In this document: positions 482-41,080 of the stretch, piece after piece
Numbering within the stretch: the stretch's first letter is position 1
Layout: each line of letters starts with the position of its first letter
DNA from: a virus
Length of the DNA stretch: 64,000 bases
Direction: 5' to 3' (one strand)
IMG/VR virus record: IMGVR_UViG_3300028883_000046
Span: 11,718-75,717 of that record
Translations under genes and position numbers: made by a program
Notes under the pieces: model-generated
Told to the model about the DNA's origin: nothing
Databases searched by the model: none
The model's input: the letters and a program-made list of their open reading frames with translations, nothing else

Positions 482-931
482 ATGGCCGAGAATAGTAAGC
501 GCGAGGCAATTATACTTTCCGATATAGCCTTGATTGAGTCTATACCGGCGATTAAAACGGTAGCAAGAAGACTGCCATCATTTTCTGATTTACAATCCTT
601 TGCTTCCACTCAATTCCCAGCGGTAGCAGTAGTAGGGAGAATTCCCGTTCCTGTAAATCATGTTCAAAGTAGAAATGGCCAGGTAGATCTAATTGTTTCC
701 GAGCTTCGCGTTGATGCCTATGTCTTCATTCATGAGAACGTAAACGCGGACGCGAAAATATCAAACATCCTGGACGACTTCTGGGCAGTACTTTATACCA
801 ACCCAACCAGAAATAATCTTTGTATGTTTACTTCTCTTGAGGCAACAGAAACAACCGAGACTTGGCCGCCATTTGTGGCTTTCCAGCTAACCTGTTTTCA
901 CAAATATCAACACTCTATTGGAGGAATTTAA
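482..931 (+). CDS. Putative tail terminator protein
   Basis: 149 aa, GAGGGAG RBS, directly before the tail tube gene; 'FPAVAV' motif. Confidence 0.5.
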   Translation: MAENSKREAIILSDIALIESIPAIKTVARRLPSFSDLQSFASTQFPAVAVVGRIPVPVNHVQSRNGQVDLIVSELRVDAYVFIHENVNADAKISNILDDFWAVLYTNPTRNNLCMFTSLEATETTETWPPFVAFQLTCFHKYQHSIGGI

Positions 932-933
932 TT

Positions 934-1509
934 ATGGAAGATGCCCATAGTACTTCTCTATATGCGCCTGCCGGAAGAGGTATCTTGTGGATCGCGGAAT
1001 GGGACGGTACCACACCGCCCACTGATCCTACAGATTATACCGAAATCGGTAACTGCCCGTCGTTTGAAGCGGAACCGACGGTAGAGCGGCGCCCACACTA
1101 TTCAAGCCGGTCGGGTCTTCGCACAAGAGATCTTAACCCAATCGTCCAAACGGAATACAATATTACTTTCGAATGCGACGAACTATCGGCGAAGAACCTT
1201 TCAAGATTTTTCCTGGGTACGTTGAACACTACCACAGGCAGAATCGCCGGGCTTCAAAACGCGGACAAAGAATACGCCTTGAAGTTCGTTTCCGACAACC
1301 CAATCGGGCCGAATGCTACCTATTACTTTCATCGGGTAACAATTGGTCCAAACGGATCTTTGCAACTTATCGGCGATGATTATCTGGTCATGAGCTTTAC
1401 CGGTGAAGGTCTTGCGGACGTGGCAAATCATGCTTCCAGCCCGTACTTCGATATCGCTTACCAGACCACGACCACCACGACAACTTCTACTACCAGCACA
1501 ACCGCTTAA
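934..1509 (+). CDS. Major tail tube protein with C-terminal poly-Thr tail
   Basis: ATG 934 after GGAGGA; 'EIGNCPSFE', 'LQLIGDDYLVMSFTGE' tube-like motifs; ends TTTTTTTSTTSTTA; precedes chaperone and tape measure. Confidence 0.8.
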   Translation: MEDAHSTSLYAPAGRGILWIAEWDGTTPPTDPTDYTEIGNCPSFEAEPTVERRPHYSSRSGLRTRDLNPIVQTEYNITFECDELSAKNLSRFFLGTLNTTTGRIAGLQNADKEYALKFVSDNPIGPNATYYFHRVTIGPNGSLQLIGDDYLVMSFTGEGLADVANHASSPYFDIAYQTTTTTTTSTTSTTA

Positions 1510-4972: not shown

Positions 4973-6277
4973 ATGACTTTAAATGGAAAAACAACTTCTG
5001 GATCGGTTACTTCTTTTGCGGGCGCCACTGGTTTACTTCAAGCGCTACTTGACTTTGTTTCCGGTACAAAGTTAGAGGATCAAGCAACCGCAGGATCAAG
5101 TGTTGGACCGTATACCGATACGTTATCAACTCCCGTTGGTTTAGGATCAGTATTGATGAAGTATACCATTTCAGGTCTTGACTATACAGCAAGAGACGAT
5201 GGTGTTGGAGCTATAACGGGAGATTATATAGACTCTGCCTCAATCAACTATGATACAGGCGCATTAACCGTCACTCTTACAACCACACCGGATGCAAACC
5301 CAACTTATGACTATGTATATGGCGAAGACGGCGGCGATTGGGAAGTAAAGATAAATCGAAATACAAGAAATGGTAACAAAACCTCTCCCTCGGAACCATT
5401 TGGAAGTAATTGTAAGGAAGTAATTCTACATAATAGAGGATTGAGCGGTGCAGAAAATATCTTGATCGGTATAAGAGAGTGGCAATATGTAGCGGCTAAC
5501 GCATCTGGCTGGGATCTAACAGGCTTTACTTCTTATTCGGACGGCATGTATTTCGGTAGAACTTTTGAAGACCTTAGTTTAACCTATGATACTACCTGGA
5601 ACTGTTTTGAAAACGCTCCCAAACTACCGCTAATTGACGATACAATTTACTATTGGTTTTTCAGCAATAGGCAAAGAATAATAGTTATTGCGAAAGTTCA
5701 AAGTAATTACGAATCAATCTATCTTGGATTTGCCAATAGATATGGAAACCCAGAAGACTATCCTTATCCGCTCGTTATAAAAGGGAGCTTGTACGGGAAG
5801 AAAACCATTACAGAAACATCAGAGGCAAGCCATGCATTTATTCCCTATAGTACAACTTCCGGAACCAATATGCTTCATAATGTTTTGCCAGATGGTTCTT
5901 GGTCGTTGAATTGGGGAGCTTTTTCTTCGAATTACGCCACAATCCTTTTCCCTGTGTGCAATTGGAATTCTTCCAGTAGATTACTATCCGAAACACCGAA
6001 CAAAAAAGAAGTACTTCTATCACCTGTTATGTCCCTTAGCTTGGCAAATAATTCTGTACTGCATGAACTTGATGGTGTTCTACATGCGGCCGGCGTTGGC
6101 GTTCAATCTGAGGACGAAATCAGAGGGCACGATGGCATAAAATACTTGGCATTTCAAAATATATCGAGGATCGATTACGATGATTTTATGGGAGTAGCAA
6201 ATGAGGATTATACATCTACTTCCACAACAACCACAACGACGACCACGACCACGCTAACAACAACTACTACCGAATAA
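4973..6277 (+). CDS. Virion structural (tail) protein with C-terminal poly-Thr tail
   Basis: Follows tape measure; 'YWFFSNRQRIIVIAKV..YESIYLG' resembles YuA-like virion proteins; ends TSTSTTTTTTTTTTLTTTTTE. Confidence 0.65.
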   Translation: MTLNGKTTSGSVTSFAGATGLLQALLDFVSGTKLEDQATAGSSVGPYTDTLSTPVGLGSVLMKYTISGLDYTARDDGVGAITGDYIDSASINYDTGALTVTLTTTPDANPTYDYVYGEDGGDWEVKINRNTRNGNKTSPSEPFGSNCKEVILHNRGLSGAENILIGIREWQYVAANASGWDLTGFTSYSDGMYFGRTFEDLSLTYDTTWNCFENAPKLPLIDDTIYYWFFSNRQRIIVIAKVQSNYESIYLGFANRYGNPEDYPYPLVIKGSLYGKKTITETSEASHAFIPYSTTSGTNMLHNVLPDGSWSLNWGAFSSNYATILFPVCNWNSSSRLLSETPNKKEVLLSPVMSLSLANNSVLHELDGVLHAAGVGVQSEDEIRGHDGIKYLAFQNISRIDYDDFMGVANEDYTSTSTTTTTTTTTTLTTTTTE

Positions 6278-10291: not shown

Positions 10292-13231
10292 ATGGCTGTA
10301 TATCTACTCGTTATTGCGTTGGTAGTACTTGCAGCCGGTTTGTATATGGCTTCAATGAACCAACCAGATCAAAATCAGCAGGACATGGCTCCGAACGGGA
10401 TTGACTCTTTCAAGGCAACGACAAACCAGGAAGGAGCAGTAGTTCCCGTTATGATAGGTGAAGGAAGACTTTCTGCCAATTTACTTTGGTTTGGAAATCT
10501 TGTAACAGAAGAAATTGTAGAAGAGATGGAAACGGGAGGCAAGGGCGGAGGAGGTGGCGGAAATGAGGACGTAGTAACAGGCTATAGATATTATATGGAT
10601 GTTTGGGAAGCAATTTGTGTTGGGCCAGATGTAGAAATAGTCCAAGTTTTCCAAAACGACAAACCAATAAATCTTATTGGAACCTTAAACCCTGGAGATA
10701 CTCTTTACTTCCCAACCGAGGCTGGTCAATACTCTGCGCCTTTAAATCCTGTAGCGCATGTTTTTATGAGCCGTCAATGGATAGGAGATAATGTAAGCTC
10801 CGTTCCAACTTATCACTGGGCAGTAAAGAAAACAAGCAATGCGCCTTTAAATCATGCGAACCTAACGAATGGTACAAACCCTGCGGCCGCAATATATGAC
10901 ATTTTGATAATGTCTGGAACCAAGGCTTCTTCTTTTGTTTTAAGTTCTTTCCAGGATGCCGCGGACTACTGGTACGATAAGGGCTATGGAATAAATCTTG
11001 CTTTGAACAAACAAGAAGAAACAAGGAATATTATAAAAAGAATTTTTACCTATGTTGATGGAAATTTGAGAGTAGATAACCAGGACAGATTTGAATTGGT
11101 CGCCTGGAAAGATACGGATACCTATCAATATGAAATTGACGAAGAAGACCTAAAAGATTTTAATTTTAGGAGAAGAAGTTGGTATGACGTATATACCGAC
11201 TTTAGAGCCAATTTTATTTACAAACAAAAGAATTACACCCAAAGAACTTTACGGGTAAGAAATACTGCCGTTAAAGATATCATTGGGCAAGACAAACAAA
11301 TTACTATTGACCTAACCGCTTTCAACGATATAACTGCCGCCTCGAAAAGACTTTGGGAGTTAATGAAACAACTATCCTATCCAGAAGCGGAAGCCTCTGC
11401 CAAGGTTAGTTTAAAATATTCAAAAGTAAAAGTTGGTGACGTTGTTAGAGTAAGTTACTCTCCATATGAAATAACAAACATGGATTTTAGAGTAATAGGG
11501 ATTGACGTAGCAAAAGCAGATAGTAATGAAATCTCTTGGAACATGCGCCAATTGACTACTACTCTATTTGATACGAATTTTGGATTGGGCGGTGAGCCGC
11601 AATGGGTCGAACCCGACTACTCACCACAAGAGCCTTTGGACGTAGAGTTTTTCGAGCTTCCATATACTTCCAGAATTGAATATGACTACACAGCTAAATT
11701 TAGAGTTTCCTATTTGGTACTTGTAGCAAGAGCAGGAAACGAAACGGGCTTTCAAGTTCATACTTCCGGAAGCGGAAGTAATTACTCAAGAGCCCAAACC
11801 ATGTCAACGTTCTCTCAGGTAGGAACGCTTGACGAAGATTATCCGGCAGACACTTACAGTATTGACGACGAAACTGGAATTCTTTACACTCCCGAAAGAG
11901 AGGACCCGAAGTTTGGGAGTCTTTTCAGAAATGAACTTTTTACAAAGTTAAGATTTGCAATTATAGACGAAGAGATTCTTGCCTTTCAAACTGTAGATTA
12001 CGAGGGAGAAGAAAGTATCAGGCTAACGGGAGTAATTCGCGGCATACTAAATACACCCATAGAAACACATACCGCAGGATCGAAGATATGGATAACAAGT
12101 TTCAGAAATAATATTTTAAGTGAGACCGAATATCACGAGTTTAATGCCAAGGTAGTAACCACTTTTGGAGGCGAAGTATTTGATATATCCGAAGTATCGC
12201 CAATTACTGTTACAGAAACGCAGAAAGCCGCGCAACCTTGGACGCCTTGGAATGCTTATGCAGAAAGAGACGGCGTAACCATTAACGTTACCGTGGCGCA
12301 CACCACAAAGGCTACAGATGGCGCTGGTGTACTTCCCGCAGAATCGCAAAAAACAGTAGAAAAGCAATTAGCCGAAGGGTTTGTCCTTTGGTGGACAAGT
12401 GTTGACTCTACCGTAAATGAAGAGAGATATGGGAAGTTCGACTATATCAACGGCTCGGCCGGAAATCATACTCTTTACATAGCTCAAATAAACAGCCTTG
12501 GATTCCAAACGGACACAATAGAGATAGTTGTTGGTCCTGACGATGGCGACTATTTCTGCGACGATCACTTGACCGAAAATTATTCTTTCGAAAAAATTCA
12601 ATATGGTTCGCAAAACTGGATCGATATTATGAACAGGAACGCAACCAGATTGAATGACGAAGTTTTGAAAATTTCAGGATTGATTGACGTTGATTTGTCC
12701 GGTATAGCTGATACAAATGCAATAGCCTGGAATAGTACTTCCGAGAAATACGAGCCGGTCGACTGGTTAACAACGTTCCCGACTTCTACTACTACCAGCA
12801 CTACCAGCACAACCAACACGCAGTCAACCACAACCAACACACAGTCTACCACAACGTCAAGTACTTCGACCACAACGTCAAGTTCCAGCACAACCAACAC
12901 GCAATCGACCACAACGTCAAGTACTTCGACAACGACCGAGTCGCAAACGTCAACCTCGACTGTTACCAACACGGGGACAACGACAACCAACACGCAATCG
13001 ACAACGAGTAGTAGTTCAACGACAACGACTCAAACCAGCTCTACCAGTACGACTTCTACCAGCACGACAACAACCAACACGGTAACAGAAAGTACTTCTA
13101 CCTCGACCACAAGTACCAGCTCTTCCAGCACGACAACAACAACGACGCCTCCTGGCGCGGGCGGAGCCTATGAGGGCGAAGACGTTATGAGTGATGCATT
13201 TTATATTGATGGGATTATGATCCCAGCCTAA
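10292..13231 (+). CDS. Large tail tip / central fibre protein with mucin-like Thr/Ser-rich C-terminal region
   Basis: 'EGAVVPVMIG', 'GGKGG', 'NPAAAIYDIL', 'LTGVIRGILNT...H.AG' GTA-like tip motifs; Thr/Ser tract 12770-13147. Confidence 0.85.
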   Translation: MAVYLLVIALVVLAAGLYMASMNQPDQNQQDMAPNGIDSFKATTNQEGAVVPVMIGEGRLSANLLWFGNLVTEEIVEEMETGGKGGGGGGNEDVVTGYRYYMDVWEAICVGPDVEIVQVFQNDKPINLIGTLNPGDTLYFPTEAGQYSAPLNPVAHVFMSRQWIGDNVSSVPTYHWAVKKTSNAPLNHANLTNGTNPAAAIYDILIMSGTKASSFVLSSFQDAADYWYDKGYGINLALNKQEETRNIIKRIFTYVDGNLRVDNQDRFELVAWKDTDTYQYEIDEEDLKDFNFRRRSWYDVYTDFRANFIYKQKNYTQRTLRVRNTAVKDIIGQDKQITIDLTAFNDITAASKRLWELMKQLSYPEAEASAKVSLKYSKVKVGDVVRVSYSPYEITNMDFRVIGIDVAKADSNEISWNMRQLTTTLFDTNFGLGGEPQWVEPDYSPQEPLDVEFFELPYTSRIEYDYTAKFRVSYLVLVARAGNETGFQVHTSGSGSNYSRAQTMSTFSQVGTLDEDYPADTYSIDDETGILYTPEREDPKFGSLFRNELFTKLRFAIIDEEILAFQTVDYEGEESIRLTGVIRGILNTPIETHTAGSKIWITSFRNNILSETEYHEFNAKVVTTFGGEVFDISEVSPITVTETQKAAQPWTPWNAYAERDGVTINVTVAHTTKATDGAGVLPAESQKTVEKQLAEGFVLWWTSVDSTVNEERYGKFDYINGSAGNHTLYIAQINSLGFQTDTIEIVVGPDDGDYFCDDHLTENYSFEKIQYGSQNWIDIMNRNATRLNDEVLKISGLIDVDLSGIADTNAIAWNSTSEKYEPVDWLTTFPTSTTTSTTSTTNTQSTTTNTQSTTTSSTSTTTSSSSTTNTQSTTTSSTSTTTESQTSTSTVTNTGTTTTNTQSTTSSSSTTTTQTSSTSTTSTSTTTTNTVTESTSTSTTSTSSSSTTTTTTPPGAGGAYEGEDVMSDAFYIDGIMIPA
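12770..13147 (+). repeat. Degenerate coding repeats (TTNTQS, TTTSSTS units) forming a Thr/Ser tract
   Basis: Repeated ACCAACACGCA and ACCACAACGTCAAGT blocks across 126 codons. Confidence 0.85.
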
Positions 13232-13257: not shown

Positions 13258-14526
13258 ATGACGTTTAAAAGACTTGTTGCCTACAATGCTTCAAACACCG
13301 CCGACTTCTGCGAACAAATGAAGGATCTCATGGTTGCCGCTGGTTGGACTCTTCATGATGATTTGTCTTCTGCTACACCACCAAGATATATTATGAAGAC
13401 AAATGGTGAAGCACCCGAAACAAAGTGTCCTTGCTATCTTGAAATAAAATGGGACGCAAGTTATGCCGATAAAATTTCCATGTTGATGTACCTCTATTGG
13501 AATAACTCTACTCATTCGGGAGTAGTACAAATTGGATCTGAAACTGGCAACTATATGTATTCGGACGACGATGCTTCCTTTTATGGGTGGATTTATACAA
13601 GTAAAGATTTTGTAATCATCATAACAAAAATTGGCGCTACCTACTATGGAGGTTGGTGCTCACGTTTCCAGCCTGGATATCAATTTATTGGTTTTCTACA
13701 GTCAAGCGCTTCTGCGGGATCGAGTGTTACACTTCAACTTGGAAAAGGACAAACACGCGGAGCAGTAGTTGGCGCGAAGTGTATGGTGGTATGTTACGAT
13801 GGCACAGTTGGGAGAGATCACGATTGCGAAATTACTGCCGTTGACGATGATAACAACCAAATAACGGTTGACGCTTTAACCTATACTTTCCCTGCGGGAT
13901 CCTCGGTTGGATTTGTTCCCTATCCTTGGTTGTTATCCAGATTTTCGAATAGTGCTTCTCAATACAGCCTTTGGGGTGCTTCTGGAACGAGCGCATACAC
14001 TACCGGTGGAAATGCTCTTCAAACTTTGACCTATCAATATGTTGATCCAGAAGAGTTAACCGGAATGTATATGCTTCTTCCTTATTGTTTGCTTCGCTCC
14101 GGTGCTGGGTATGCCGGATTTATAGATAGATGGTTGCTCGGCGATGCTTTTACAACAAGCTCTTATGAAGACACAGTAGGAGTGGGAGTAATTCAGGGAG
14201 ACACGGTAGCAACTGGTGGTGGAAGTAATACTCTTGCCGATACAAATCAATCTTGGGAAGTTGATGCTCTCATTGATTATGCCGTGATTATCATATCAGG
14301 CACTGGTGCTGGTCAAATTAGGACGATTTCTGATAACACGGCAATAGGATTGACGGTTGACGATAATTGGAGCGTACAGCCAGACAGTACTTCCCATTAT
14401 ATTATTTGTAGCGAAGCCTATAGACACTTTGGCTTCAACTCTACTTCCTATTCGAAAAGTATATTTGAAGGCGGGCATTATACCCCCGCATTGTGTTATG
14501 AAATTACGACAACCACTACCGTTTAG
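13258..14526 (+). CDS. Virion structural / fibre-like protein ending in a short Thr tail
   Basis: 'LMVAAGWTLHD' N-terminus; 'IISGTGAGQIRTISDNT'; ends ITTTTTV. Confidence 0.6.
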   Translation: MTFKRLVAYNASNTADFCEQMKDLMVAAGWTLHDDLSSATPPRYIMKTNGEAPETKCPCYLEIKWDASYADKISMLMYLYWNNSTHSGVVQIGSETGNYMYSDDDASFYGWIYTSKDFVIIITKIGATYYGGWCSRFQPGYQFIGFLQSSASAGSSVTLQLGKGQTRGAVVGAKCMVVCYDGTVGRDHDCEITAVDDDNNQITVDALTYTFPAGSSVGFVPYPWLLSRFSNSASQYSLWGASGTSAYTTGGNALQTLTYQYVDPEELTGMYMLLPYCLLRSGAGYAGFIDRWLLGDAFTTSSYEDTVGVGVIQGDTVATGGGSNTLADTNQSWEVDALIDYAVIIISGTGAGQIRTISDNTAIGLTVDDNWSVQPDSTSHYIICSEAYRHFGFNSTSYSKSIFEGGHYTPALCYEITTTTTV

Positions 14527-16076: not shown

Positions 16077-16307
16077 ATGAGAAAAATTATGAACTTTCTA
16101 AAAAGAAAAGTCTCTGTTAAATCTCTTGGTAGAGAAGAGAAGACGGAAATTATGTTGAGTACTGCCCAGGAAGAGGCAAAAAAGGCAAGAAAAATTGCAG
16201 AAGAAAAAATAGACAATATCTATGCCCAACTAAACGGTTGTGGTGATAGATGGTTTCTAATGCCAAAAAAGACGATTGATAGTTGTAAAGAGGAGGAAAA
16301 TAATTAA
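16077..16307 (+). CDS. Hypothetical protein
   Basis: 76 aa ORF, stop overlaps next ATG. Confidence 0.5.
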   Translation: MRKIMNFLKRKVSVKSLGREEKTEIMLSTAQEEAKKARKIAEEKIDNIYAQLNGCGDRWFLMPKKTIDSCKEEENN

Positions 16308-17104
16308 TGGACGCTCTAATGTTCTTTAATCTTTCAACCGCTGTAATCTCATTTTTCGGTTTTATGATTTTTGTTCAATGGTGGGTCACAACGAGAAAGG
16401 CGACGATAGTATATATCTATATCCTTTTACTTATCTTTGCCATAGGTGTGGAAAATCTTATAGAGTTTTACTTCCGGTATAACCATTATGATGCCATACA
16501 ACAACTTGCCTCGGCAGGTTGCTCGGTATGCGCTCATCTTTTTGATAAATATTGGATGTTTAAGGGATTGCTTGTGTTTGTTGTTATTAGCATATTCATG
16601 CTTCATATGATCCAAAGAATTTACCATACGATGTTTAAAATAAAAAAAATACAAAGCGAGGTAGAAAAGTATTACAACCCAAATGCCTCGTTTTTTGTTT
16701 TGATAGTAGAAGACGATCTTTTAATACCTGCTATCCTTGGCGAATACATTTCAAAGAAATCTAAGGGCGCAAGTGTTGTTGTTAGATCCTCAGCCGAAGA
16801 AGCACTCGAATACCTTGGAAAAGATCCTTCAATAAATATGATTCTATGCGATATAGCGCTGAAAGGCAAAATGACCGGCTTTGATTTAATTAGAACAGTA
16901 AAGAAAAGCTATCCTTGGATAATCAATATCTGTATGACAGGCTATCCTGGAAGATATAGTCTTCACGATGCAAGAAAAGAGGGCTTCGATGATTACTTCA
17001 TTAAACCGTTTAGGCTTGACGATATTGCCAAATCGATGAATTATCACAGGCAGAAAATGGTAAGATGGGGTAATATTACAAATAGAGCGGATCGAGTAGT
17101 ATAA
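16307..17104 (+). CDS. Membrane protein (~3 TM) with C-terminal response-regulator receiver domain
   Basis: Three hydrophobic segments, then 'VLIVEDD', 'ILCDIAL' (phospho-Asp), 'MTGY', 'IKPF'. Confidence 0.85.
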   Translation: MDALMFFNLSTAVISFFGFMIFVQWWVTTRKATIVYIYILLLIFAIGVENLIEFYFRYNHYDAIQQLASAGCSVCAHLFDKYWMFKGLLVFVVISIFMLHMIQRIYHTMFKIKKIQSEVEKYYNPNASFFVLIVEDDLLIPAILGEYISKKSKGASVVVRSSAEEALEYLGKDPSINMILCDIALKGKMTGFDLIRTVKKSYPWIINICMTGYPGRYSLHDARKEGFDDYFIKPFRLDDIAKSMNYHRQKMVRWGNITNRADRVV

Positions 17105-17123: not shown

Positions 17124-17525
17124 ATGGAATACGGTGAGATTATTCAAAGATTTTTTATCGAAGTGGTATTTCCAATTCTTGGCGCGGTCGTTCTATCTCT
17201 TATTGGCCTGGTTATCAAAAAGATATCCGCGAAACTCGGCAATGAAGAGATCTTGAAACATCAGACCCAGATTGAAGAGCTGGCAATATCTGCAATTGGA
17301 TATGCAGAAGAAAAAGCTCTTGAGCGCATGAAAAAAGGACCTCAAGATAAAATCACAGGTGAACAAAAGCTTGATATGGCTATTGGCTGGCTTATGTCCA
17401 AAGCAAAGGCGGTCGATAGAGATCAAGCAAGAGAATGGATAGAGGGCACCATACCCAAGCTTGCTGGTATGGGAGCTACTGGCGAGAAGACAATAAAAAA
17501 GATAGAGGAGGATTGCGATGTTTAA
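17124..17525 (+). CDS. Putative holin (LL-H-like)
   Basis: N-terminal TM, then 'SAIGYAEE...GEQKLDMAI...IEG'. Confidence 0.6.
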   Translation: MEYGEIIQRFFIEVVFPILGAVVLSLIGLVIKKISAKLGNEEILKHQTQIEELAISAIGYAEEKALERMKKGPQDKITGEQKLDMAIGWLMSKAKAVDRDQAREWIEGTIPKLAGMGATGEKTIKKIEEDCDV

Positions 17526-20394: not shown

Positions 20395-21084
20395 ATGCTA
20401 ATTGCTCTTATCCCAACTATGGATGTTGCCGGGTCTTTGCCTTTGGTCCGAAGTATTTTGAATTGCAAAGACAGACCAGAAGAGACCTATATCATAAATA
20501 ACGGTAAGCGAGTAGGTGAGCAAGTAATCAAAGATGTTCAATCAGGCATCTGTTTAATACAATTTGATAAAAACATAGGTGTGAATGCTTCTTGGAATGT
20601 CGGCTTGAATATTGCAGAAGACAAAAAGGCTCACTTGTCTATCCTGAATGATGATATCCAAATCAAATACACTTTTTTTAGCCGAATTAGAAAACTACTT
20701 CGCACCGATAACCACACTCCTGTTTTTTGCCCAAGTACTATTCACGATCTTGATAAGTTTTTTAACCTTCCAAGTTTTTCTACTGCGCCAAGTAGCATAA
20801 CCACTATGCGGCGCAAAGAGGGTTGGGCATTTACGATAAGAGATTCCTACGTTAAAAAAATACCTGCAATCCCAAAAGAACTTTTTACTTTTTGCGGTGA
20901 TGATTGGATTTGGGATCATACGGTTTCCTATGGCGGTAGATGGATAAAAGATATAAGTAATGTTATCTATCATCGCATTGGAAAAACATTGCGGCAAATG
21001 CCAGAATTGAGATCCCGATTGAGAGAAGAAAAACAAATTTACAAAAGAATAAAACAAAAGGGAAAGCACTCATGGGAAGAGTAA
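20395..21084 (+). CDS. Glycosyltransferase, GT-A fold (GT2-like)
   Basis: 'NIGVNASWNVG', 'ILNDDI', 'FCGDDW'. Confidence 0.75.
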   Translation: MLIALIPTMDVAGSLPLVRSILNCKDRPEETYIINNGKRVGEQVIKDVQSGICLIQFDKNIGVNASWNVGLNIAEDKKAHLSILNDDIQIKYTFFSRIRKLLRTDNHTPVFCPSTIHDLDKFFNLPSFSTAPSSITTMRRKEGWAFTIRDSYVKKIPAIPKELFTFCGDDWIWDHTVSYGGRWIKDISNVIYHRIGKTLRQMPELRSRLREEKQIYKRIKQKGKHSWEE

Positions 21085-21587
21085 CGATGGGTAGACATAG
21101 CTATGGCAAGATAAAAGTAATTGGACAACGTTGCCATGTATATGTTGGCCGATTTACTTCAATTGCCGACGATGTAAAGGTAATTACTTTAGGTCACGAT
21201 CCTAAAAACGTTTCTACCTTTCCATTCAATAAATTTAAAGGTTGGGATAGAGCATTAAACTCTACTACCCATCCTAAAGTTTATGGTGACGTTCAAATTG
21301 GTCACGATGTTTGGATCGGATATGGTAGTACTATTATGGGAGGCGTGAAAATCCTTGATGGTGCTATAGTTGCCGCTGGTTCAGTAGTAATAAAGGACGT
21401 TTCTGCTTATTCTATTGTGGGAGGTGTTCCTGCTCAACATATAAAGTGGCGCTTTCCAATCGAGGATATTCAAACTCTTCTAAAAATAAAATGGTGGGAT
21501 TGGGAGGACGATAAAATAAGAACAAATGCAGATATACTTTGTTCGCATAATATCGATTATTTTTTAACCACACATGGAGGGAAGTAA
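21072..21587 (+). CDS. Hexapeptide-repeat O-acetyltransferase (CatB/Vat-like fold)
   Basis: 'IGHDVWIG', 'GAIVAAGSVVIKDV..YSIVGGVPA', 'IKWWDW'. Confidence 0.85.
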   Translation: MGRVTMGRHSYGKIKVIGQRCHVYVGRFTSIADDVKVITLGHDPKNVSTFPFNKFKGWDRALNSTTHPKVYGDVQIGHDVWIGYGSTIMGGVKILDGAIVAAGSVVIKDVSAYSIVGGVPAQHIKWRFPIEDIQTLLKIKWWDWEDDKIRTNADILCSHNIDYFLTTHGGK

Positions 21588-21588
21588 A

Positions 21589-22257
21589 ATGGAAGAAGCG
21601 CCCAAAAAATTCAAAACGCCGAAGCAATACAGGGAAATGGAATTCAGACAACTACTTGTAGAGCTAACAAAACTTTTGAAGCCTAAAGTCTATGTGGAGA
21701 TTGGCATTAAAAAGTGTTATACTTTTAACCAAATCTCACCGCTTGTAGATTTGGCAATTGGCGTTGATATCAACGAATCAAGCTGGCAGTATATGGAAAT
21801 AGCAAAAGAAAATGATATCTTTCTTTGCATGGATAGTAAAGGGTTTGCCGAATGGGTTAAGCAATATAAGCCGGAACTTAAAATCGATTTTCTTTTTATC
21901 GATGGCGACCATCACCATGAAGCTATTCTGGACGATATCGATGCCTGTATTGGTCTTCTCAAGCCTTATGAAAGCATGGTTTTCCTTCATGATACATATC
22001 CTGCGAACGAAAATTTATTGGCAAAGGGATATTGCTTCGATGCATGGAAAGCCGCAAGCTTCATTCGAAAGTTCGCAAAAGACGATTTTGAAATAACTAC
22101 TTTGCCTGGACCCTGGGCCGGTATGTCAATACTTCGATTCGCGCCAGATTACTGCCATGGCTGGATGGAAGAGGACATATCGAAAATGTTCCAAAAACAA
22201 AAATATTACAACGAAAGGAAAACTACACTTGGTAAATTTAACCCTTCGGATTTGTGA
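21589..22257 (+). CDS. Class I SAM-dependent methyltransferase
   Basis: 'VYVEIG', 'IDFLFIDGDH', 'FLHDT'. Confidence 0.75.
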   Translation: MEEAPKKFKTPKQYREMEFRQLLVELTKLLKPKVYVEIGIKKCYTFNQISPLVDLAIGVDINESSWQYMEIAKENDIFLCMDSKGFAEWVKQYKPELKIDFLFIDGDHHHEAILDDIDACIGLLKPYESMVFLHDTYPANENLLAKGYCFDAWKAASFIRKFAKDDFEITTLPGPWAGMSILRFAPDYCHGWMEEDISKMFQKQKYYNERKTTLGKFNPSDL

Positions 22258-22464: not shown

Positions 22465-23579
22465 AAGTAGTATTTCTTTTCATGTCGCAAGGGTGCGCCT
22501 CGCCAGGTTCTACAGAAAGAACTTATCCAAAACATCAGTGTGGTACGAAGTATATGGATGATTTTGCGGGCGAGGGATATTTTAAACTTCTTGACGCCTT
22601 GGTTAAAAACGAGACGATAACAGATTTAAAGATATTTTTTGAATCAAACGTCCAACCGGGTCTCGCAAGTTGGGTAACGGGCGAAAACGTATATTGCGAA
22701 GTAATTCCCGAAATTCGGTTTGTGGAAGAGTATATTGACAAAGACACGATTATCTTTGCAAGAGGCGGGTTTAAACATTGGCATGATTTTCTTTTGAAGT
22801 ATAAAGGCAAAAACTGGCTAATGCTTTATGCCGCTAATACTGGTAGACAACGGTGGACGTTCTGGGATATTATCCTTGACGATTTGAGAGATTTTCACTC
22901 GATTGATAAGTACGGAAGATATTACTTCCCTTTCGTCAAGCCTATCAATGAGGATATGTTCTATCCAAAAAACGATACGCCTATTGAATGGGATTTTTGT
23001 ATTGGTGCCTCCCATATTCATGATCGAAAAGGACAGTGGAGAGCATTAGAAGCAATTATTGAGTATAACAGAAAGTATGGTGAAATCAGAGCCGTTATGC
23101 CTGGTGCGCCAAGAAGAAGTATAAAGACTCATGAAATGCTTTTAAGATTAGATGAAATGCGATGGGTAGAAACTCCCGGTCATGTTCACAGGACGCAACT
23201 TAGGGAGATATTGAATGGGTCGAAGTATTTCATTCATCTTGGCGCGCACGGTCAAAACGATAGAGGCCCGCTTGAAGCTCTTGCCTGCGGTACTTCAACC
23301 ATAATTGCTTCTCCAGGTTATCATGCTCCCTTTCTAACGGATTGTTGTTTTACTGGTTGCAATCTTGACGATAAGGAATCAATTGCCAACAGTATGCATT
23401 TTTTAAGAAATGCCTGGACGCCTCAGGACAAAATAAAAACGTATAACTTCTACAAGAAAAAAAGCGGATTTGAAGGAGTGGTGATTCCAAAAATGACCTC
23501 CCTATTTTCTTTGCTTTCGATGGCACATCCTTGTTTGCAAGCAAAGAAAGAAATAAGACAAATCTTTTTGGAAAGGTGA
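22461..23579 (+). CDS. Glycosyltransferase, GT-B fold
   Basis: 'RKGQ', 'QNDRGPLEALACG', 'LREILNGSK'. Confidence 0.65.
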   Translation: MKVVFLFMSQGCASPGSTERTYPKHQCGTKYMDDFAGEGYFKLLDALVKNETITDLKIFFESNVQPGLASWVTGENVYCEVIPEIRFVEEYIDKDTIIFARGGFKHWHDFLLKYKGKNWLMLYAANTGRQRWTFWDIILDDLRDFHSIDKYGRYYFPFVKPINEDMFYPKNDTPIEWDFCIGASHIHDRKGQWRALEAIIEYNRKYGEIRAVMPGAPRRSIKTHEMLLRLDEMRWVETPGHVHRTQLREILNGSKYFIHLGAHGQNDRGPLEALACGTSTIIASPGYHAPFLTDCCFTGCNLDDKESIANSMHFLRNAWTPQDKIKTYNFYKKKSGFEGVVIPKMTSLFSLLSMAHPCLQAKKEIRQIFLER

Positions 23580-23584
23580 CAATT

Positions 23585-24184
23585 ATGAACAACCTGCATA
23601 GTCTTTACAACGAAAGTTTTTTTTATCGAAGAAAAAATCTTTTGTGGCGCGCACCCATCCTATGTGACATAATCAAAAGAGTATTTCCAAACATGATTAG
23701 CGTTATAGATGTCGGATGCGCTATTGGCGAGTTTGTTCAAGAGTTTCAAAACATGGGAATGGTCGCCATGGGTATTGAGGGAAGCACAAGTGCCAAAAAG
23801 TACTTCTTGCCTGATATTCATGTATCCTTGTGGGATATGAGGCAAATGCTACCTCCATCAAAGGTTAACTTTTATGATCTTTGTATGTGTCTTGAGGTTG
23901 CGGAGCACATAGAAGAAGAGTATTCCGATATATTTGTTAACAATCTATGTAGCCTATCAAAGACTGTTTTAATATCTGCCGCAGTACCAGGACAACAAGG
24001 TCATGGCCATTTTAATTGCCAACCAAACGAGTATTGGGAAATAAAATTTGGTATAAGAAAGTACAAAAGAAATTGCGACAAAGAAAATCAATTCAGGCAA
24101 TTGCTTGAGAAGTACAAGACTAAAAAAGGATTAAACGCCTATTATTCAAATACAATGATCTATGAAAAGAAAATAGGTTTTTAA
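23585..24184 (+). CDS. Class I SAM-dependent methyltransferase
   Basis: 'VIDVGCAIG', 'CLEVAEHI', 'SAAVPGQQGHGHFNCQ..YW'. Confidence 0.8.
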   Translation: MNNLHSLYNESFFYRRKNLLWRAPILCDIIKRVFPNMISVIDVGCAIGEFVQEFQNMGMVAMGIEGSTSAKKYFLPDIHVSLWDMRQMLPPSKVNFYDLCMCLEVAEHIEEEYSDIFVNNLCSLSKTVLISAAVPGQQGHGHFNCQPNEYWEIKFGIRKYKRNCDKENQFRQLLEKYKTKKGLNAYYSNTMIYEKKIGF

Positions 24185-24204
24185 GACTGAAAGGAAGACC
24201 TAAA

Positions 24205-24483
24205 ATGATTAAAGTAAATCCTAAAGTTTGTAAAAGGTGCGCACGACATAATCTTGCCTGGATGGCTACCGCACGACAACCGTTATCAATGATAAAGCTT
24301 AGGTATAGAATGCTTTTGGAATGCTCAAGAGCATTACTTCGCAATTTAACATTGCCGTGCCCGGTTGTTTTCTTTAGGGACGAAGAAGTAAATCCATATG
24401 GTTATTCAAAATTGTCTTCGCTAACAGGTAGTGTTCCTCGTTGGTGCCCATATGCAGTACAACATAAATACGAAATTTTTTGA
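24205..24483 (+). CDS. Hypothetical Cys-containing protein
   Basis: AAGGA RBS; CxxC and WCPY. Confidence 0.5.
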   Translation: MIKVNPKVCKRCARHNLAWMATARQPLSMIKLRYRMLLECSRALLRNLTLPCPVVFFRDEEVNPYGYSKLSSLTGSVPRWCPYAVQHKYEIF

Positions 24484-24505
24484 ATAGAAAAAGGAGAGAA
24501 TATCA

Positions 24506-25312
24506 ATGGAGAACCATCAGAAATTTGACTTGACCTGTACGGCAACCCTGAGGCCCGAGCTTTTGGATATTACTCTTTCAACATTTACAAAGAATTTTTT
24601 TAGAGAGAGGATAAGTTGTGCGAGGCTTATAATCAACATTGATATGGCAGGTGTTGAAGAAGAAAGAGAAAAGCAAGAGAAGTATCAGGATGTTTTGTCC
24701 ATCATAGAAAAGTATCCGTTTTATGAGAAAGAAATTAGAGTTGGGAACGATCCTCACTTCCCAACAGCCTTTTGTTGGTGTATGAGCGAGCTTGAAAACG
24801 AATACTTTTTTCATCTTGAGGAAGATTGGCGAATGTTGATACCTCTTGACTTTGAAGAAATGTGGACCATCTTTTCCAAATATGAAACCTTGGCCCACCT
24901 TCGTTTGTCGCAATTTAAAAGCGAAGAAAAAGAGTGTAAGAATTGGAACAAATTCCTACCCTGGAATGGCGAGTTTTTCGAAGTGAAAGAAGAAGAGAAG
25001 GGAGTTATTGGCTGGGCTGGTCACCCTTCGTTGAATAGATCCTCGTTTATGAAGGAGTGTTTGAAATACATTGACCCTATGGTTAATCCAGAGAAGCAAA
25101 TCAAAGGGAGAAGATATACCCATCCTATGAATGAAATACTTTCATGGCACAGATTTGGTAGCTATCACCCGCAAAATTCTGCTCCCGCAATTATGGATAT
25201 CGGCAGAAACTGGATGATTCAACATGGGTGGATCAAAGAAGGTTCGAAAGCATTTTTCACAAACTGGATTAAAGAGAAGAAAGATTATGAGGATTACATT
25301 TTGGAAACATAG
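24506..25312 (+). CDS. Putative glycosyltransferase, GT-A fold
   Basis: 'TATLRPELL..TL', 'YFFHLEEDW', 'HPSL'. Confidence 0.65.
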   Translation: MENHQKFDLTCTATLRPELLDITLSTFTKNFFRERISCARLIINIDMAGVEEEREKQEKYQDVLSIIEKYPFYEKEIRVGNDPHFPTAFCWCMSELENEYFFHLEEDWRMLIPLDFEEMWTIFSKYETLAHLRLSQFKSEEKECKNWNKFLPWNGEFFEVKEEEKGVIGWAGHPSLNRSSFMKECLKYIDPMVNPEKQIKGRRYTHPMNEILSWHRFGSYHPQNSAPAIMDIGRNWMIQHGWIKEGSKAFFTNWIKEKKDYEDYILET

Positions 25313-25478
25313 ATTTGGAATGTTTACCTTCACAGTAAAAGAGTTTCGGTGCTGTGGAAACGTATGGCAACTACTGCTTTCCAAAAACTGGCCAGAAAGA
25401 TATCTTTGGAAGCCAAGATGCCCAACATGCGGTAAACCCATAAGAAGAAGGAAGAAAAGAAATGGGAAACGAGGTTAA
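25287..25478 (+). CDS. Small Zn-ribbon-like hypothetical protein
   Basis: CC...CPTCG. Confidence 0.4.
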   Translation: MRITFWKHRFGMFTFTVKEFRCCGNVWQLLLSKNWPERYLWKPRCPTCGKPIRRRKKRNGKRG

Positions 25479-25647
25479 CAAACAATTGATTTTTGATATT
25501 AAACAGTTGATTACCAAATATGAAAAAGAAATGGGAGGATTGAGAATAAAAGAAATTCACATATTCTGGAATAATCATGGCGTAGACAATCTTTTATTTA
25601 TCACATCCGCAGTCAAGAATCTATCGTTACACCCAAAACAATTTTAA
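25462..25647 (+). CDS. Hypothetical protein
   Basis: 61 aa ORF within the operon. Confidence 0.4.
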   Translation: MGNEVNKQLIFDIKQLITKYEKEMGGLRIKEIHIFWNNHGVDNLLFITSAVKNLSLHPKQF

Positions 25648-25663
25648 AAAAGGAAGGCTAAAA

Positions 25664-26725
25664 ATGAAAAAAGATCTATCTATTATTATCCCTTTCGTTG
25701 GTGAGTATCCCCAGGTACTCTTTACTATCCAATCTATTGCCCAAAGTCTTTTAGGATCGTCAATTGATTTTGAGATAGTAGCCGTCAATAACTATTGCTT
25801 AAAGGTTCAAGACCAGGCAAGAATTGCGGCAGAAAAACAAATGAAAGTACTTTGGCAAAAGATCTTTAATGATAACGAGGAATTTTGTGTTGAGGACATA
25901 TACTCAATTCGAAAAAATACCATGCCAACATTCGAAGACAAAAGCGGCCCTGCGATTGCGGCTTGCGTGAAGGGAAACGAGTGGTTGAAGTATATTCACT
26001 ATGACGAAAGATTGTCACACTGGCAAGCCAAAAGAGCAGGGGTTGACGCCTCAAGCGGCCAGGTTTTAATGTTCGTTGACGCGCACACAACGCCTTCACA
26101 CAATGCAATCGAAGGAATGTATAATGCATATACCACAAACTATTCGAAGCTTGGATCGATTCATCTTCCTTTGACATACAAGATCCTTGAGTGGCATAAA
26201 TTGATTTATAAGCCTCTTGTTGAAGAGAAATACTTCTACTCCTATAAATTTACAGGGTTTAGGGAATCGCCCGACCCTTATGAGGTAGCTTGTATGTCTA
26301 CTTGTGGCATGATGATAGATAGAGATATTTATGACGCAATTGGCGGTTGGCCAGTTGGTCTGGGAGTATACGGAGGTGGCGAGAATTTCATGAATTATAC
26401 TTTGGCAGTATGCGGCTACAAGAAGTATATATATCCTGATGGAATTCTTTTTCACCATGGAGAGAAAAGAGATTACCATTATTACTATGACGATTTTGTA
26501 ACCAATAGGCTGATAGCTCATTATTTGTTTGGCGGAAAAGATTTGCTTCACAAACTTAAAACAGTAATGAAAGGAAGACCAGAGACTTTGGAAATGTTTT
26601 GCCATGAAGTAGAAAAACAACATTCCGATCAAAGGCAAAAAATAAAAGCAATTCAAAAAGAGAACGTAGAAGACTGGATAAAAGCATGGTACAAACAAGA
26701 CGAGGGAGAAGAAAATGGACTTTAA
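25664..26725 (+). CDS. GT-A glycosyltransferase with ppGalNAc-T-like motifs
   Basis: 'LSIIIPF', 'SGQVLMFVDAH' (DxH), 'IDRDIYDAIGG...YGGGEN...VCG'. Confidence 0.8.
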   Translation: MKKDLSIIIPFVGEYPQVLFTIQSIAQSLLGSSIDFEIVAVNNYCLKVQDQARIAAEKQMKVLWQKIFNDNEEFCVEDIYSIRKNTMPTFEDKSGPAIAACVKGNEWLKYIHYDERLSHWQAKRAGVDASSGQVLMFVDAHTTPSHNAIEGMYNAYTTNYSKLGSIHLPLTYKILEWHKLIYKPLVEEKYFYSYKFTGFRESPDPYEVACMSTCGMMIDRDIYDAIGGWPVGLGVYGGGENFMNYTLAVCGYKKYIYPDGILFHHGEKRDYHYYYDDFVTNRLIAHYLFGGKDLLHKLKTVMKGRPETLEMFCHEVEKQHSDQRQKIKAIQKENVEDWIKAWYKQDEGEENGL

Positions 26726-27101
26726 TGAATATCTGAAAGATTTTGAAAGCAAGATCGTCGTAGGTGGTTTTACTTCTGGCATTTTTAGTGCCAAGGAGCA
26801 TGTTGTGCCTCTTCGTCCAGGGAAACTTTCCAATTCTGAGTTTGGGCAGTTTGTTGGAGAAGTATTTGAGGCGGACGATATTTTTGCAATCAACTATTAT
26901 GGATTGTATAAGTTGTCCGAGAAGATCATAACCGTTTCCAATGACGCTATGAATATCTTTGGTACGATTAGATCTATAAAATGCCCTGTGGTCTACTTCA
27001 ACTCGATTAAGTTTGAAACGGTTAAGAAACTCTCTCCTGAGCTTTACGAGAATTTTGCCGAATTCAAAAAGTATGTTGTGGATCTCAGGTGGGGAAAGTA
27101 A
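26715..27101 (+). CDS. Hypothetical protein
   Basis: GGGAG RBS; last gene of the + arm. Confidence 0.6.
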   Translation: MDFNEYLKDFESKIVVGGFTSGIFSAKEHVVPLRPGKLSNSEFGQFVGEVFEADDIFAINYYGLYKLSEKIITVSNDAMNIFGTIRSIKCPVVYFNSIKFETVKKLSPELYENFAEFKKYVVDLRWGK

Positions 27102-27122
27102 AAGAGAGTCAAAAAAAGGGCC

Positions 27123-27163
27123 AAAAAAAAAGGGAGCGATTTTTTAGGTCGCTCCCTTTTTTT
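27123..27163. terminator. Bidirectional rho-independent terminator
   Basis: A9-GGGAGCGAT...GTCGCTCCC-T7 at the convergence of the two arms. Confidence 0.9.
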
Positions 27164-27173
27164 ATACTTCTTT

Positions 27174-27563
27174 TTAGGCAAGCTTGTTTAGATACTCGAC
27201 AAACTTGCCCATCATTTCGTAAAACTCCGTCCTAATTACGGATCCGAAACCATTTTTCCAAAAAAATATATTTTCTTCTTCCGGTGTTCTTTTCGTAAAA
27301 CAAGCCGTTTTATACACTGGCCATTTTGGAAATGGACTTTCCCGCAAAACCCTGTTAACGTCTCTTTTTGTTTTGCAGTCTACCAATAGGCGTTTAAGTC
27401 TATTTAAGTAGTACTCTTGAGCGTCTCTTACAGAAAGACCAAAGCCTTCGTTATACCAGTGCGCTTGAAATTCAGTTTCTTTAAGAGTTGGTGTAACAGG
27501 CTGAAGGATTTGCATAGCTTCCGACAACGTTTCTTTGTCAAAGTATTTAACTTTTTTTGCCAC
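27174..27563 (-). CDS. Hypothetical protein
   Basis: 129 aa ORF, last gene of the - arm. Confidence 0.6.
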   Translation of the reverse strand: MAKKVKYFDKETLSEAMQILQPVTPTLKETEFQAHWYNEGFGLSVRDAQEYYLNRLKRLLVDCKTKRDVNRVLRESPFPKWPVYKTACFTKRTPEEENIFFWKNGFGSVIRTEFYEMMGKFVEYLNKLA

Positions 27564-27837
27564 TGTTTTCTTCCTTTCCTATTTTGAAGTGATAGATTAT
27601 TTTTGATCTCAAATAATCAAGAGCGTCTGCTATTTCTTTTGGCCCTGCCGGCTCTTTAACTTCTACTGCCATGTGATAGTCGTTATCCCAATCTATTCTA
27701 AGTTCCAAGGTCGTTTTGGTTGTTTTTTCGAAAAGAGAATAAACCTTGTTTTCTTTTTTGAATGAATCGCGTGAAGACTTTAGATTAATGATTTTGTGAT
27801 TTGTATAGATCTCCTCAACTCTTGGTAGACGGCTCAT
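27547..27837 (-). CDS. Hypothetical protein
   Basis: GGAG RBS; packed ORF. Confidence 0.6.
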   Translation of the reverse strand: MSRLPRVEEIYTNHKIINLKSSRDSFKKENKVYSLFEKTTKTTLELRIDWDNDYHMAVEVKEPAGPKEIADALDYLRSKIIYHFKIGKEENSGKKS

Positions 27838-27852
27838 TTTTTTTCTTCTCCA

Positions 27853-28434
27853 TTAGTGTTTGAAAAATTGATATCCTTCTGGTTGTTTTTCAATTTCTTT
27901 TTGTTTCTTTACTGCCTCTTTGGGCGTTTTACTTTTATCTGCCATTCTCAATTTTTCAAGATCTTCCATAGTGAGAGAAATTTCATTTGTAGAGTTCTCG
28001 AGGACTTTTTCGACCGATTTGGAAAGCGCTCTTTTTTGTTCCCAATAACCTCTATATGAAGCGGCAAACTTTTCAGGAGTTGGCACATATCCTCTAATGA
28101 CTTGAAAGGTACACATAAAAAGTAGATTGAAAATGTCGTTTGGGTCTTCGATGAAAAATCTCTCCTTCATATGACCATACAGTGCTGAGTCTTTACTTCT
28201 CAATCCCCAACCATCTTTCAGAAAGCCAAAAGTAATTCTTGCTCTTCTGGCAAACTCTTCTGCCGTCATTGCTTCGGGTTCGTCAAGTTTTATTCTTTCA
28301 ACAAGGATTATCAAGGATTTTATTGCTTCCTCATATGTTGTTGGCTTGACAACCTTAACAACGTCCGCACCCGAAAAAAGAATTGCTATGGCGTTATATA
28401 TGGATTTAAATAAGGTTTTAATTCGTTTCATCAT
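27853..28434 (-). CDS. Hypothetical protein
   Basis: 193 aa packed ORF. Confidence 0.6.
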   Translation of the reverse strand: MMKRIKTLFKSIYNAIAILFSGADVVKVVKPTTYEEAIKSLIILVERIKLDEPEAMTAEEFARRARITFGFLKDGWGLRSKDSALYGHMKERFFIEDPNDIFNLLFMCTFQVIRGYVPTPEKFAASYRGYWEQKRALSKSVEKVLENSTNEISLTMEDLEKLRMADKSKTPKEAVKKQKEIEKQPEGYQFFKH

Positions 28435-40522: not shown

Positions 40523-41080
40523 TTAATTCCCAAAAACTTCTCTTTTAAGTATTTCCAAATCGCTTTTCATTTCGTTCATTATTGAAATGAAATGAAATCT
40601 GAATTCGTTCATATTTTTTGAATTTTGCCTTGCCAATTCTAAATCTGATTCCAGTCTACTGTTTTCTTTCTGTAGTCTTTCCTGTTCCAATTCTGCCGTT
40701 TTGACTGTAAAGGTGTAGTTCATTTTCTCTTCGTCAAACTTCTTTGCTTCCTCTTCCAACCGATTATCAATCTTCCTATCCTCTTCATCGGAACGCAAGC
40801 CTTCCTCTATTCGATTCATACGGATAGATAAGTTGTCTAATTTGGCAAACAGTTTTTTAATTTGCTTTTTTTGACTTTCAATTGCTTCTCTTTGGCTTAC
40901 AATGGCAATATTTATTTCAGATTTTACAAAGCCCTTGTTGGCTATAAACCTATTTGCCAATTGTTTTGTAACCTCTTCGGTTGTAATGCTTCGCAAATAC
41001 TTTTCAAAATTTCTGGCAAAATCTTTCGAATTCATGTTTTTCTCCTTTTCTTCTTCTATATAATTATAGAAGATTTTCAA
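40523..41080 (-). CDS. Coiled-coil hypothetical protein
   Basis: Heptad-rich ORF; true start may be MNSKDF. Confidence 0.55.
   Translation of the reverse strand: MKIFYNYIEEEKEKNMNSKDFARNFEKYLRSITTEEVTKQLANRFIANKGFVKSEINIAIVSQREAIESQKKQIKKLFAKLDNLSIRMNRIEEGLRSDEEDRKIDNRLEEEAKKFDEEKMNYTFTVKTAELEQERLQKENSRLESDLELARQNSKNMNEFRFHFISIMNEMKSDLEILKREVFGN

Follow-up and report, generated by a model that had tools for sequence, protein, structure and literature searches.

A GT27-like glycosyltransferase of a marine-sediment phage, a candidate initiator of O-glycosylation on poly-threonine virion tags

We identified a candidate protein-glycosylating enzyme in the genome of an uncultured marine-sediment phage. 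The open reading frame (ORF) at positions 25664-26725 of a 64,000-nucleotide stretch of its DNA (hereafter the window; bases 11718-75717 of IMG/VR virus record IMGVR_UViG_3300028883_000046) encodes a glycosyltransferase (GT) whose best structural and profile matches are the eukaryotic polypeptide GalNAc-transferases (ppGalNAc-Ts) of family GT27. It closes a cluster of sugar-modifying genes in a genome in which six virion-module proteins carry runs of Thr and Ser, here called tags, at or near their C-termini. We propose that the cluster glycosylates these virion tags (probability roughly 0.75) and that the GT27-like enzyme would add the first sugar, a step to which the resemblance of its modelled fold lends about even odds (roughly 0.5).

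The phage enzyme resembles ppGalNAc-transferases in sequence and fold

A preliminary description of this DNA, made from the letters alone, had pointed out several short motifs in the translation, and all of them are present. D139-A-H141 lies within QAKRAGVDASSGQVLMFVDAH at nt 26078-26086, exactly where it had been placed, and is followed by MIDRDIYDAIGG (residues 217-228), VYGGGENF (residues 235-242, nt 26366-26389, with YGGGEN itself at nt 26369-26386), VCG (residues 249-251) and FHH (residues 263-265, nt 26450-26458, with H264-H265 at nt 26453-26458). A metagenomic protein collection contained 548 homologues of the enzyme. Across an alignment of 40 of these homologues (45-62% identity, mean column identity 38%), in which the motifs are conserved, D139, H141, Y236, G237, G238, G239, E240, H264, H265 and R269 never vary, and conservation at N241 reaches 90% or more. 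This invariance indicates that the motifs are real and under selection rather than a chance pattern.

Searched as a single sequence against the PDB, the enzyme matched a short GpsB chain (unrelated, expectation value (E) 0.029), a lyase (weakly, E 0.45) and otherwise five ppGalNAc-Ts. With a family profile the best six matches were all ppGalNAc-Ts, led by GalNAc-T10 (E 3.5e-4), and the PDB sequence matches below E 0.02 are exclusively ppGalNAc-Ts. The HMMER alignments set VDAH opposite LDSH/LDAH, YGGGEN opposite WGGEN and the N-terminal SIIIPF..E opposite SIIIPFHNE, and in them the GH of Toxoplasma GalNAc-T3 falls on H265 of FHH. The metal site of human GalNAc-T2 consists of D224, H226 and H359; by alignment, the DxH and distal His of a GT27 metal site are found in the phage enzyme as D139-x-H141 and H265. 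The Gal/GalNAc-T motif is represented by YGGGEN (residues 236-241), which differs from WGGEN in the replacement of Trp by Tyr/Gly and in one added Gly.

The AlphaFold2 model of the enzyme is of high predicted quality (predicted local distance difference test (pLDDT) 94.4, predicted template modelling score 0.92). Foldseek comparison of this model with the PDB gave ppGalNAc-Ts at every listed match within the top 49 ranks (E 6e-15 to 2e-11). We also ran VIA, which is independent of Foldseek and searches structures exhaustively, over 48,161 representative chains. Mouse GalNAc-T1 aligned at Z 26.0 (291 residues, root-mean-square deviation 3.7) and Toxoplasma GalNAc-T3 at Z 25.3, against at most 19.4 for every other representative. 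The chains below GT27 were chondroitin polymerase K4CP (19.4), WrtF (19.1) and heparosan synthase (18.4), with TarS, SpsA and other GT2s at or below 18.4. The best match in BFVD likewise scored weaker than the GT27 matches. On the PDB profile, Foldseek and VIA results, the resemblance to GT27 is stronger than the preliminary description had claimed, and among solved structures the enzyme does not cluster with the polysaccharide GT2s, the outcome raised there as speaking against it.

The accessory architecture of GT27 is absent. Pfam finds no Ricin_B_lectin or other lectin domain and the modelled chain stops after a three-helix extension, in agreement with the earlier remark that the enzyme has no ricin lectin; a search for longer relatives returned a single 723-aa protein, itself without a lectin family. 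No transmembrane-like segment (maximum KD19 1.23), signal peptide or membrane anchor was detected. The 353-aa enzyme therefore has neither the C-terminal ricin-type (CBM13) lectin nor the type II membrane anchor of GT27, and its sequence predicts a soluble, cytoplasmic, stand-alone catalytic domain. As the GT27 fold, metal-site residues and Gal/GalNAc-T motif are found and the lectin and anchor are not, the enzyme is best termed GT27-like, not a member of GT27.

Family profiles are less informative. Pfam assigns PF00535 (Glycos_transf_2) alone, at residues 101-226 (E 1e-9), with 38.9 bits against a gathering cutoff of 23.3, so that the profile expected of a GT2 enzyme is present. The same profile is carried by 96-100% of the members of chordate ppGalNAc-T clusters in the ESM Atlas, and the PF00535 label thus does not separate GT2 from GT27. 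Neither PHROGs nor NCBIfam provides a family. Pfam at E <=1, with HMMER filters that drop weak matches, gave PF00535 only: PF02709 was not detected, nor was PF11397, which we take to be the profile of GT60, the cytoplasmic/Golgi polypeptide alpha-GlcNAc-transferases. Solved GT60 structures are absent from the match lists.

The GT27-like family is essentially virus-borne

Pattern-limited scans of IMG/VR located the GT27-like enzyme at 72 loci or more and its GT-B partner, a 486-aa glycosyltransferase encoded at the start of the cluster, in at least 227 stretches. Among genomes of 185,579 prokaryotic species we found three matches to the GT27-like enzyme, all on contigs from Deltaproteobacteria/Desulfobacteraceae bins of metagenome-assembled genomes (MAGs; L209-L211), one of which, 83,343 bp long, has its counterpart among the viral records. 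These matches are likely phage contigs and possibly a clue to the host. A tblastn search of 50,697 phage records yielded the Tunturiibacter phage Tunturi_4 as its sole match (22.6% identity, E 7e-6). The family is essentially virus-borne.

Thr/Ser tracts accompany the enzyme

Six virion-module proteins end, or nearly end, in Thr/Ser runs, and these are the candidate acceptors (Table 1). The run in the tail-tip protein spans about 125 residues (12770-13150) and is followed by a short C-terminal peptide. The Thr runs use mixed codons, indicating that selection acts on the protein. One of the two mini-proteins encoded just upstream of the window directly follows the putative major capsid gene, a frequent site of decoration proteins.

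The tail-tube tag is conserved among relatives of the phage. We examined 17 tail-tube loci, omitting six that were not read in frame; all 11 readable orthologues (46-84% identity) end in 7-17 Thr, and the GT27-like enzyme is carried by 6/6 of the related tail-tube records with a completeness of 74% or more. Among these close relatives we found neither a tail-tube orthologue that lacks the poly-Thr tail nor, among those of sufficient completeness, one that lacks the GT. Because they allowed no within-lineage two-by-two test, we used viral loci selected by random 14-mers as the control.

To count tracts we required at least 10 Ser or Thr, including at least 5 Thr, per 12-residue window, and considered only ORFs of 100 aa or longer. 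Such tracts were present in 41/72 GT27-like loci (69 tract ORFs in 1278 kb scanned) and in 58/80 GT-B loci (102 tract ORFs in 1368 kb), and in none of the 80 control loci (0 tract ORFs in 699 kb); the difference between GT27-like and control loci is significant (Fisher p 1e-17). The 59 distinct tract ORFs share the strand of the GT without exception, and in 30 of them the tract stops no more than 25 aa short of the C-terminus. In the reverse direction, among 57 viral records chosen only by an (ACN)x12 run, 4 contain the GT27-like family, well above any plausible base rate. A predicted complex of the enzyme with Mn and the C-terminal 59 aa of the tail tube protein scored 0.01, a value to which we give no weight in either direction.

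The enzyme and a GT-B glycosyltransferase form a near-obligate pair

We searched the 72 GT27-like loci by tblastn with the proteins of the window's cluster (Table 1). The most frequent companion is the 486-aa GT-B. Viewed from the GT-B side, the GT27-like gene lies 0.4-9 kb downstream in 50 of the 57 loci that have at least 8 kb of downstream sequence, and a further three carry it elsewhere in the record (53/57 in total); the remaining four are fragments, 15-61% complete. The two transferases are a near-obligate pair. In many loci the entire set consists of the GT-B, the GT27-like gene and the 128-aa ORF that overlaps its 3' end. This ORF product has no informative family, PDB or Atlas match, and its Atlas model has a pLDDT of 0.37.

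The AlphaFold2 model of the GT-B (pLDDT 93.9) was also searched by VIA. Generic GT4 sugar/lipid transferases rank at the top (Z 15.9-14.8), and protein O-GlcNAc transferases score lower (GtfA, 12.7; SdgB, 11.4; SPY, 11.2). None of the cluster proteins contains a transmembrane-like segment, and no flippase or polyprenyl-phosphate GT was found among those scanned. The 229-aa variable member gave no PDB sequence match. For the hexapeptide-repeat protein at 21072-21587, the best models are the Vat/CatB xenobiotic acetyltransferases (NCBIfam Vat, E 2e-42), with scores far below the cutoffs; judging by its neighbours, a role in sugar O-acetylation is more likely than one in resistance.

Two distant loci (L058 and L065) retain the GT27-like gene beside Thr/Ser-tract Laminin_G_3 proteins, and all of the accompanying enzymes differ. 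The proteins adjoining the GT27-like gene there (L058:2857-4182 and L065:13659-16028) combine a Laminin_G_3 (ConA-like lectin) domain with long Thr/Ser tracts. Their companions are GT2-methyltransferase fusions, a GT11-like protein and a LicD-like protein instead of the GT-B set; no homologue of the 486-aa GT-B was found within 10 kb and no GT-B in the 20 ORFs scanned.

Proposed mechanism and its alternatives

In the mechanism that we propose, the GT27-like protein would act as a cytoplasmic, metal-dependent GT-A enzyme, expressed with the late genes from its place at the close of the block of structural, lysis and glycan genes. The GGEN motif and the DxH...H metal site would bind the donor, which we infer to be a UDP-sugar, and the first sugar would be transferred to hydroxyls of the poly-Thr/Ser tags on the tail tube, the tail tip and other virion-module proteins. 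Elongation and capping of the glycan would next fall to the GT-B partner, the second GT-B, the two methyltransferases and the acetyltransferase, and the virion would end up coated in sugar. A more specific version, that a lectin-less cytoplasmic sister group of GT27 in sediment and aquatic tailed phages starts true mucin-type (HexNAc-O-Thr) glycosylation on poly-Thr tags, is tentative and to our minds somewhat doubtful.

Several observations weigh against this interpretation. Identity to GT27 chains is 13-16%, the best sequence match is at the E of 3.5e-4 given above, and Pfam and NCBIfam together yield nothing past generic GT2. Predicted bacterial clusters that combine GT2 with PF02709 (Bacillota, Actinomycetota) match the enzyme at a template modelling score (TM) of 0.73, compared with 0.72-0.73 for chordate ppGalNAc-Ts, and the phage family may, on these models, be part of a broader set of prokaryotic enzymes related to GT27 by descent or by form. 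The presence of the family in only 4 of the 57 poly-Thr records implies that tracts do not require a GT27-like enzyme. The two distant loci, with their constant GT27-like gene and variable remainder, were themselves picked by the GT27-like gene. Finally, the GT-B is nearly always present, and co-occurrence can thus not tell which enzyme touches the peptide. The preliminary description had suggested that the GT27-like enzyme adds the first sugar to the poly-Thr tracts; the link to the tracts holds (41/72 against 0/80), and the assignment of initiation to this enzyme does not follow from co-occurrence, which fails to separate it from the GT-B.

The cluster could accordingly glycosylate the tags with the 486-aa GT-B adding the first sugar and the GT27-like enzyme following it, with the glycopeptide or the first sugar itself as acceptor. 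The pairing of the two genes (58/72 loci from one side, 53/57 from the other, the four exceptions being fragments) and the position of the GT-B as the first gene of the cluster are compatible with this order. Precedents exist as well: the GtfA/GtfB system of bacterial serine-rich-repeat (SRR) adhesins is initiated on Ser/Thr by a GT4 GT-B enzyme, and several GT27 isoforms favour peptides that are already glycosylated. We nevertheless regard initiation by the GT-B as rather unlikely, as its model is nearer to generic GT4 enzymes than to GtfA, SdgB or SPY, and as tracts and GT27-like gene occur at L058 and L065 where a GT-B was not seen in the regions scanned. Initiation by the GT27-like enzyme is our preferred reading.

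A role apart from virion proteins is less plausible. The enzyme might be an ordinary GT2 polysaccharide or glycolipid transferase that acts on a host surface polymer, as in serotype conversion or superinfection exclusion, or on another non-protein acceptor, the poly-Thr runs being unrelated linkers. Its sole Pfam assignment is indeed PF00535, phage GT2s of the GtrB type exist (they appear in the BFVD match list), and solved polysaccharide GT2s align at Z 17-19. The 6-unit gap in Z nonetheless favours GT27, and a cluster with neither membrane segments nor a flippase or polyprenyl-phosphate GT, the strong coupling to Thr/Ser tracts and the near absence of the family from prokaryotic species genomes (the three matches being phage-looking MAG contigs) make this role improbable. 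Still harder to credit is glycosylation of the phage DNA, with hypermodified bases serving restriction evasion. There are phage GTs known to hypermodify DNA (PMC12619734 cites them), but here the cluster sits in the late structural and lysis block, away from the replication genes, and is accompanied by sugar-type methyl- and acetyltransferases. A partial screen of ten large replication-module proteins found no base-hydroxymethylase family, and the Thr/Ser coupling would be left unexplained.

Genomic setting

The source record (75,717 bp, GC about 37%) has direct terminal repeats and is rated complete. Near-identical DNA is contained in a marine sediment metagenome, one of two matching sequencing runs (DNA or unspecified type, with no RNA run listed), and the region 24000-28000 shows no DNA similarity to cultured phages. 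From 862 to about 27100 the plus strand encodes, in order, a siphovirus tail module (major tail protein (phrog_807), tape measure, phiJL001/BR0599-type hub, NlpC/P60 and Rcc01698-like tail tip), a lysis-like block with holin-like membrane proteins, and the sugar-modifying genes, a run that terminates with the GT27-like ORF. From 27174 onward the genes lie on the minus strand and include those for replication (Pol III alpha, clamp, clamp loader, a RecA-like protein and helicases).

Table 1. Candidate acceptors and sugar-modifying genes, with window positions unless stated otherwise and the number of the 72 GT27-like loci in which cluster proteins are found
Feature	Position	Strand	Family matches and remarks	Loci
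Major tail (tube) protein, ends TTTTTTTSTTSTTA	862..1509	+	phrog_807; tract 1465-1506; candidate acceptor	
Structural protein, C-terminal TSTSTTTTTTTTTTLTTTTTE tail	4973..6277	+	phrog_687; candidate acceptor	
Tail-tip (gpJ/Rcc01698-like) protein	10292..13231	+	phrog_1101, PF13550, PF23666; candidate acceptor	
Structural protein ending ITTTTTV	13258..14526	+	candidate acceptor	
Two small proteins, 52 and 73 aa	genome 7778-7936 and 10553-10774, just upstream of the window		short N-terminal domain and pure Thr/Ser tail	
GT4-like GT-B glycosyltransferase, 486 aa	18909..20369	+	weak Pfam GT1/GT4 matches	58/72
Possible GT-A, 229 aa, variable member	20395..21084	+	NCBIfam TIGR01556 rhamnosyltransferase-like, E 4e-4, far under cutoff	20/72
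Hexapeptide-repeat (XAT/Vat/CatB-like) O-acetyltransferase	21072..21587	+	Pfam Hexapep, phrog_16087	11/72
S-adenosylmethionine (SAM) methyltransferase (Methyltransf_24)	21574..22257	+	Pfam	14/72
Second GT-B-like glycosyltransferase, 372 aa	22461..23579	+	weak Glyco_trans_1_4, phrog_2170	37/72
SAM methyltransferase (Methyltransf_23/11)	23531..24184	+	Pfam	40/72
Conserved cluster protein, 268 aa	24506..25312	+	no Pfam, PHROG, NCBIfam or PDB match	40/72
GT27-like GT-A glycosyltransferase, 353 aa	25664..26725	+	uninterrupted translation; predicted soluble; no lectin domain	
128-aa ORF, 11-nt overlap with the 3' end of the GT gene	26715..27101	+	present also in minimal clusters	24/72

Two further genes of the window have unusual domain combinations. 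The plus-strand ORF at 16307-17104, which has the tail genes on one side and a holin-like gene (17124-17525) on the other, encodes a 265-aa protein whose strongly hydrophobic N-terminal part (maximum KD19 2.38) is followed by a response-regulator receiver domain (PF00072, E 8e-15), with no kinase or output domain seen. On the minus strand, the 1131-aa DNA polymerase III alpha subunit (41077-44475) has PHP, NTPase and finger domains and ends in a uracil-DNA-glycosylase-superfamily domain (PF03167, E 4e-21), a fusion that is unusual for a phage replicase.

Relation to known glycosylation systems

If the proposal is true, it would add a second, unrelated and apparently widespread system to that of the mycobacteriophages and make sugar-coated phage particles a general theme. 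Such a coat would presumably bear on how the phage adsorbs, how stable its particles are, whether they adhere to mucus or biofilm, and how they are recognised by immune systems. If the mucin-type version holds, the chemistry that initiates animal mucin glycosylation would have a counterpart in prokaryotic viruses, and a poly-Thr tag together with its enzyme would amount to a portable two-part system for cytoplasmic O-glycosylation. A small soluble GT27-like enzyme with a simple tag would be of interest both for bacterial glyco-engineering and for the origin of the mucin-type initiating enzymes.

To our knowledge, virion glycosylation has been shown experimentally only in mycobacteriophages, where it was reportedly described by Freeman and colleagues in 2023. 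The nearest functional precedent for the present system is found there: in Che8 (gp110), Corndog (gp38) and Myrna, GTs encoded in the phage genome glycosylate the phage's capsid and tail-tube subunits at their C-termini (as summarised in PMC12619734 and PMC12363180). The mycobacteriophage enzymes have no homology to the GT27-like enzyme detectable by tblastn among the 50,697 phage records. The putative system described here further differs in its marine-sediment host lineage, its long pure poly-Thr tags and its GT27-like fold. We found no description of a phage GT27-like enzyme with poly-Thr targets in the limited library of literature searched; phage self-glycosylation is known in kind, and the GT27-like enzyme family with its poly-Thr tags is probably previously undescribed.

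The GtfA/GtfB system of Gram-positive SRR adhesins (GtfA, PDB 4pqg) is likewise soluble and cytoplasmic, and works stepwise with mixed GT-B and GT-A enzymes on Ser/Thr-rich tracts. There the GT4 GT-B initiates, whereas the phage GT-B resembles GtfA less than it does generic GT4 enzymes; the phage also has no aSec export system, and its putative targets are virion proteins. Among bacterial proteins, those that combine GT2 with PF02709 (Glyco_transf_7C; about 290-310 aa in the ESM Atlas) are similar to the phage enzyme in size, in the lack of a lectin domain and in fold at the TM noted above, and differ from it in their detectable PF02709.

The eukaryotic GT27 enzymes (mouse GalNAc-T1, 8v9q; human T2, 2ffu and 6nqt; T10, 2d7i; Toxoplasma GalNAc-T3, 6s24 and 8uhv) remain the closest match. 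Unlike them, the phage enzyme has no ricin-type lectin, signal anchor or stem, is predicted to be cytoplasmic rather than Golgi-lumenal, is encoded by a phage, and carries YGGGEN in place of WGGEN at a low overall identity. Common to both are the DxH motif, the distal His, GGEN and the N-terminal IIIPF..E strand, and the candidate acceptors of the phage are, like GT27 substrates, Thr-rich and mucin-like.

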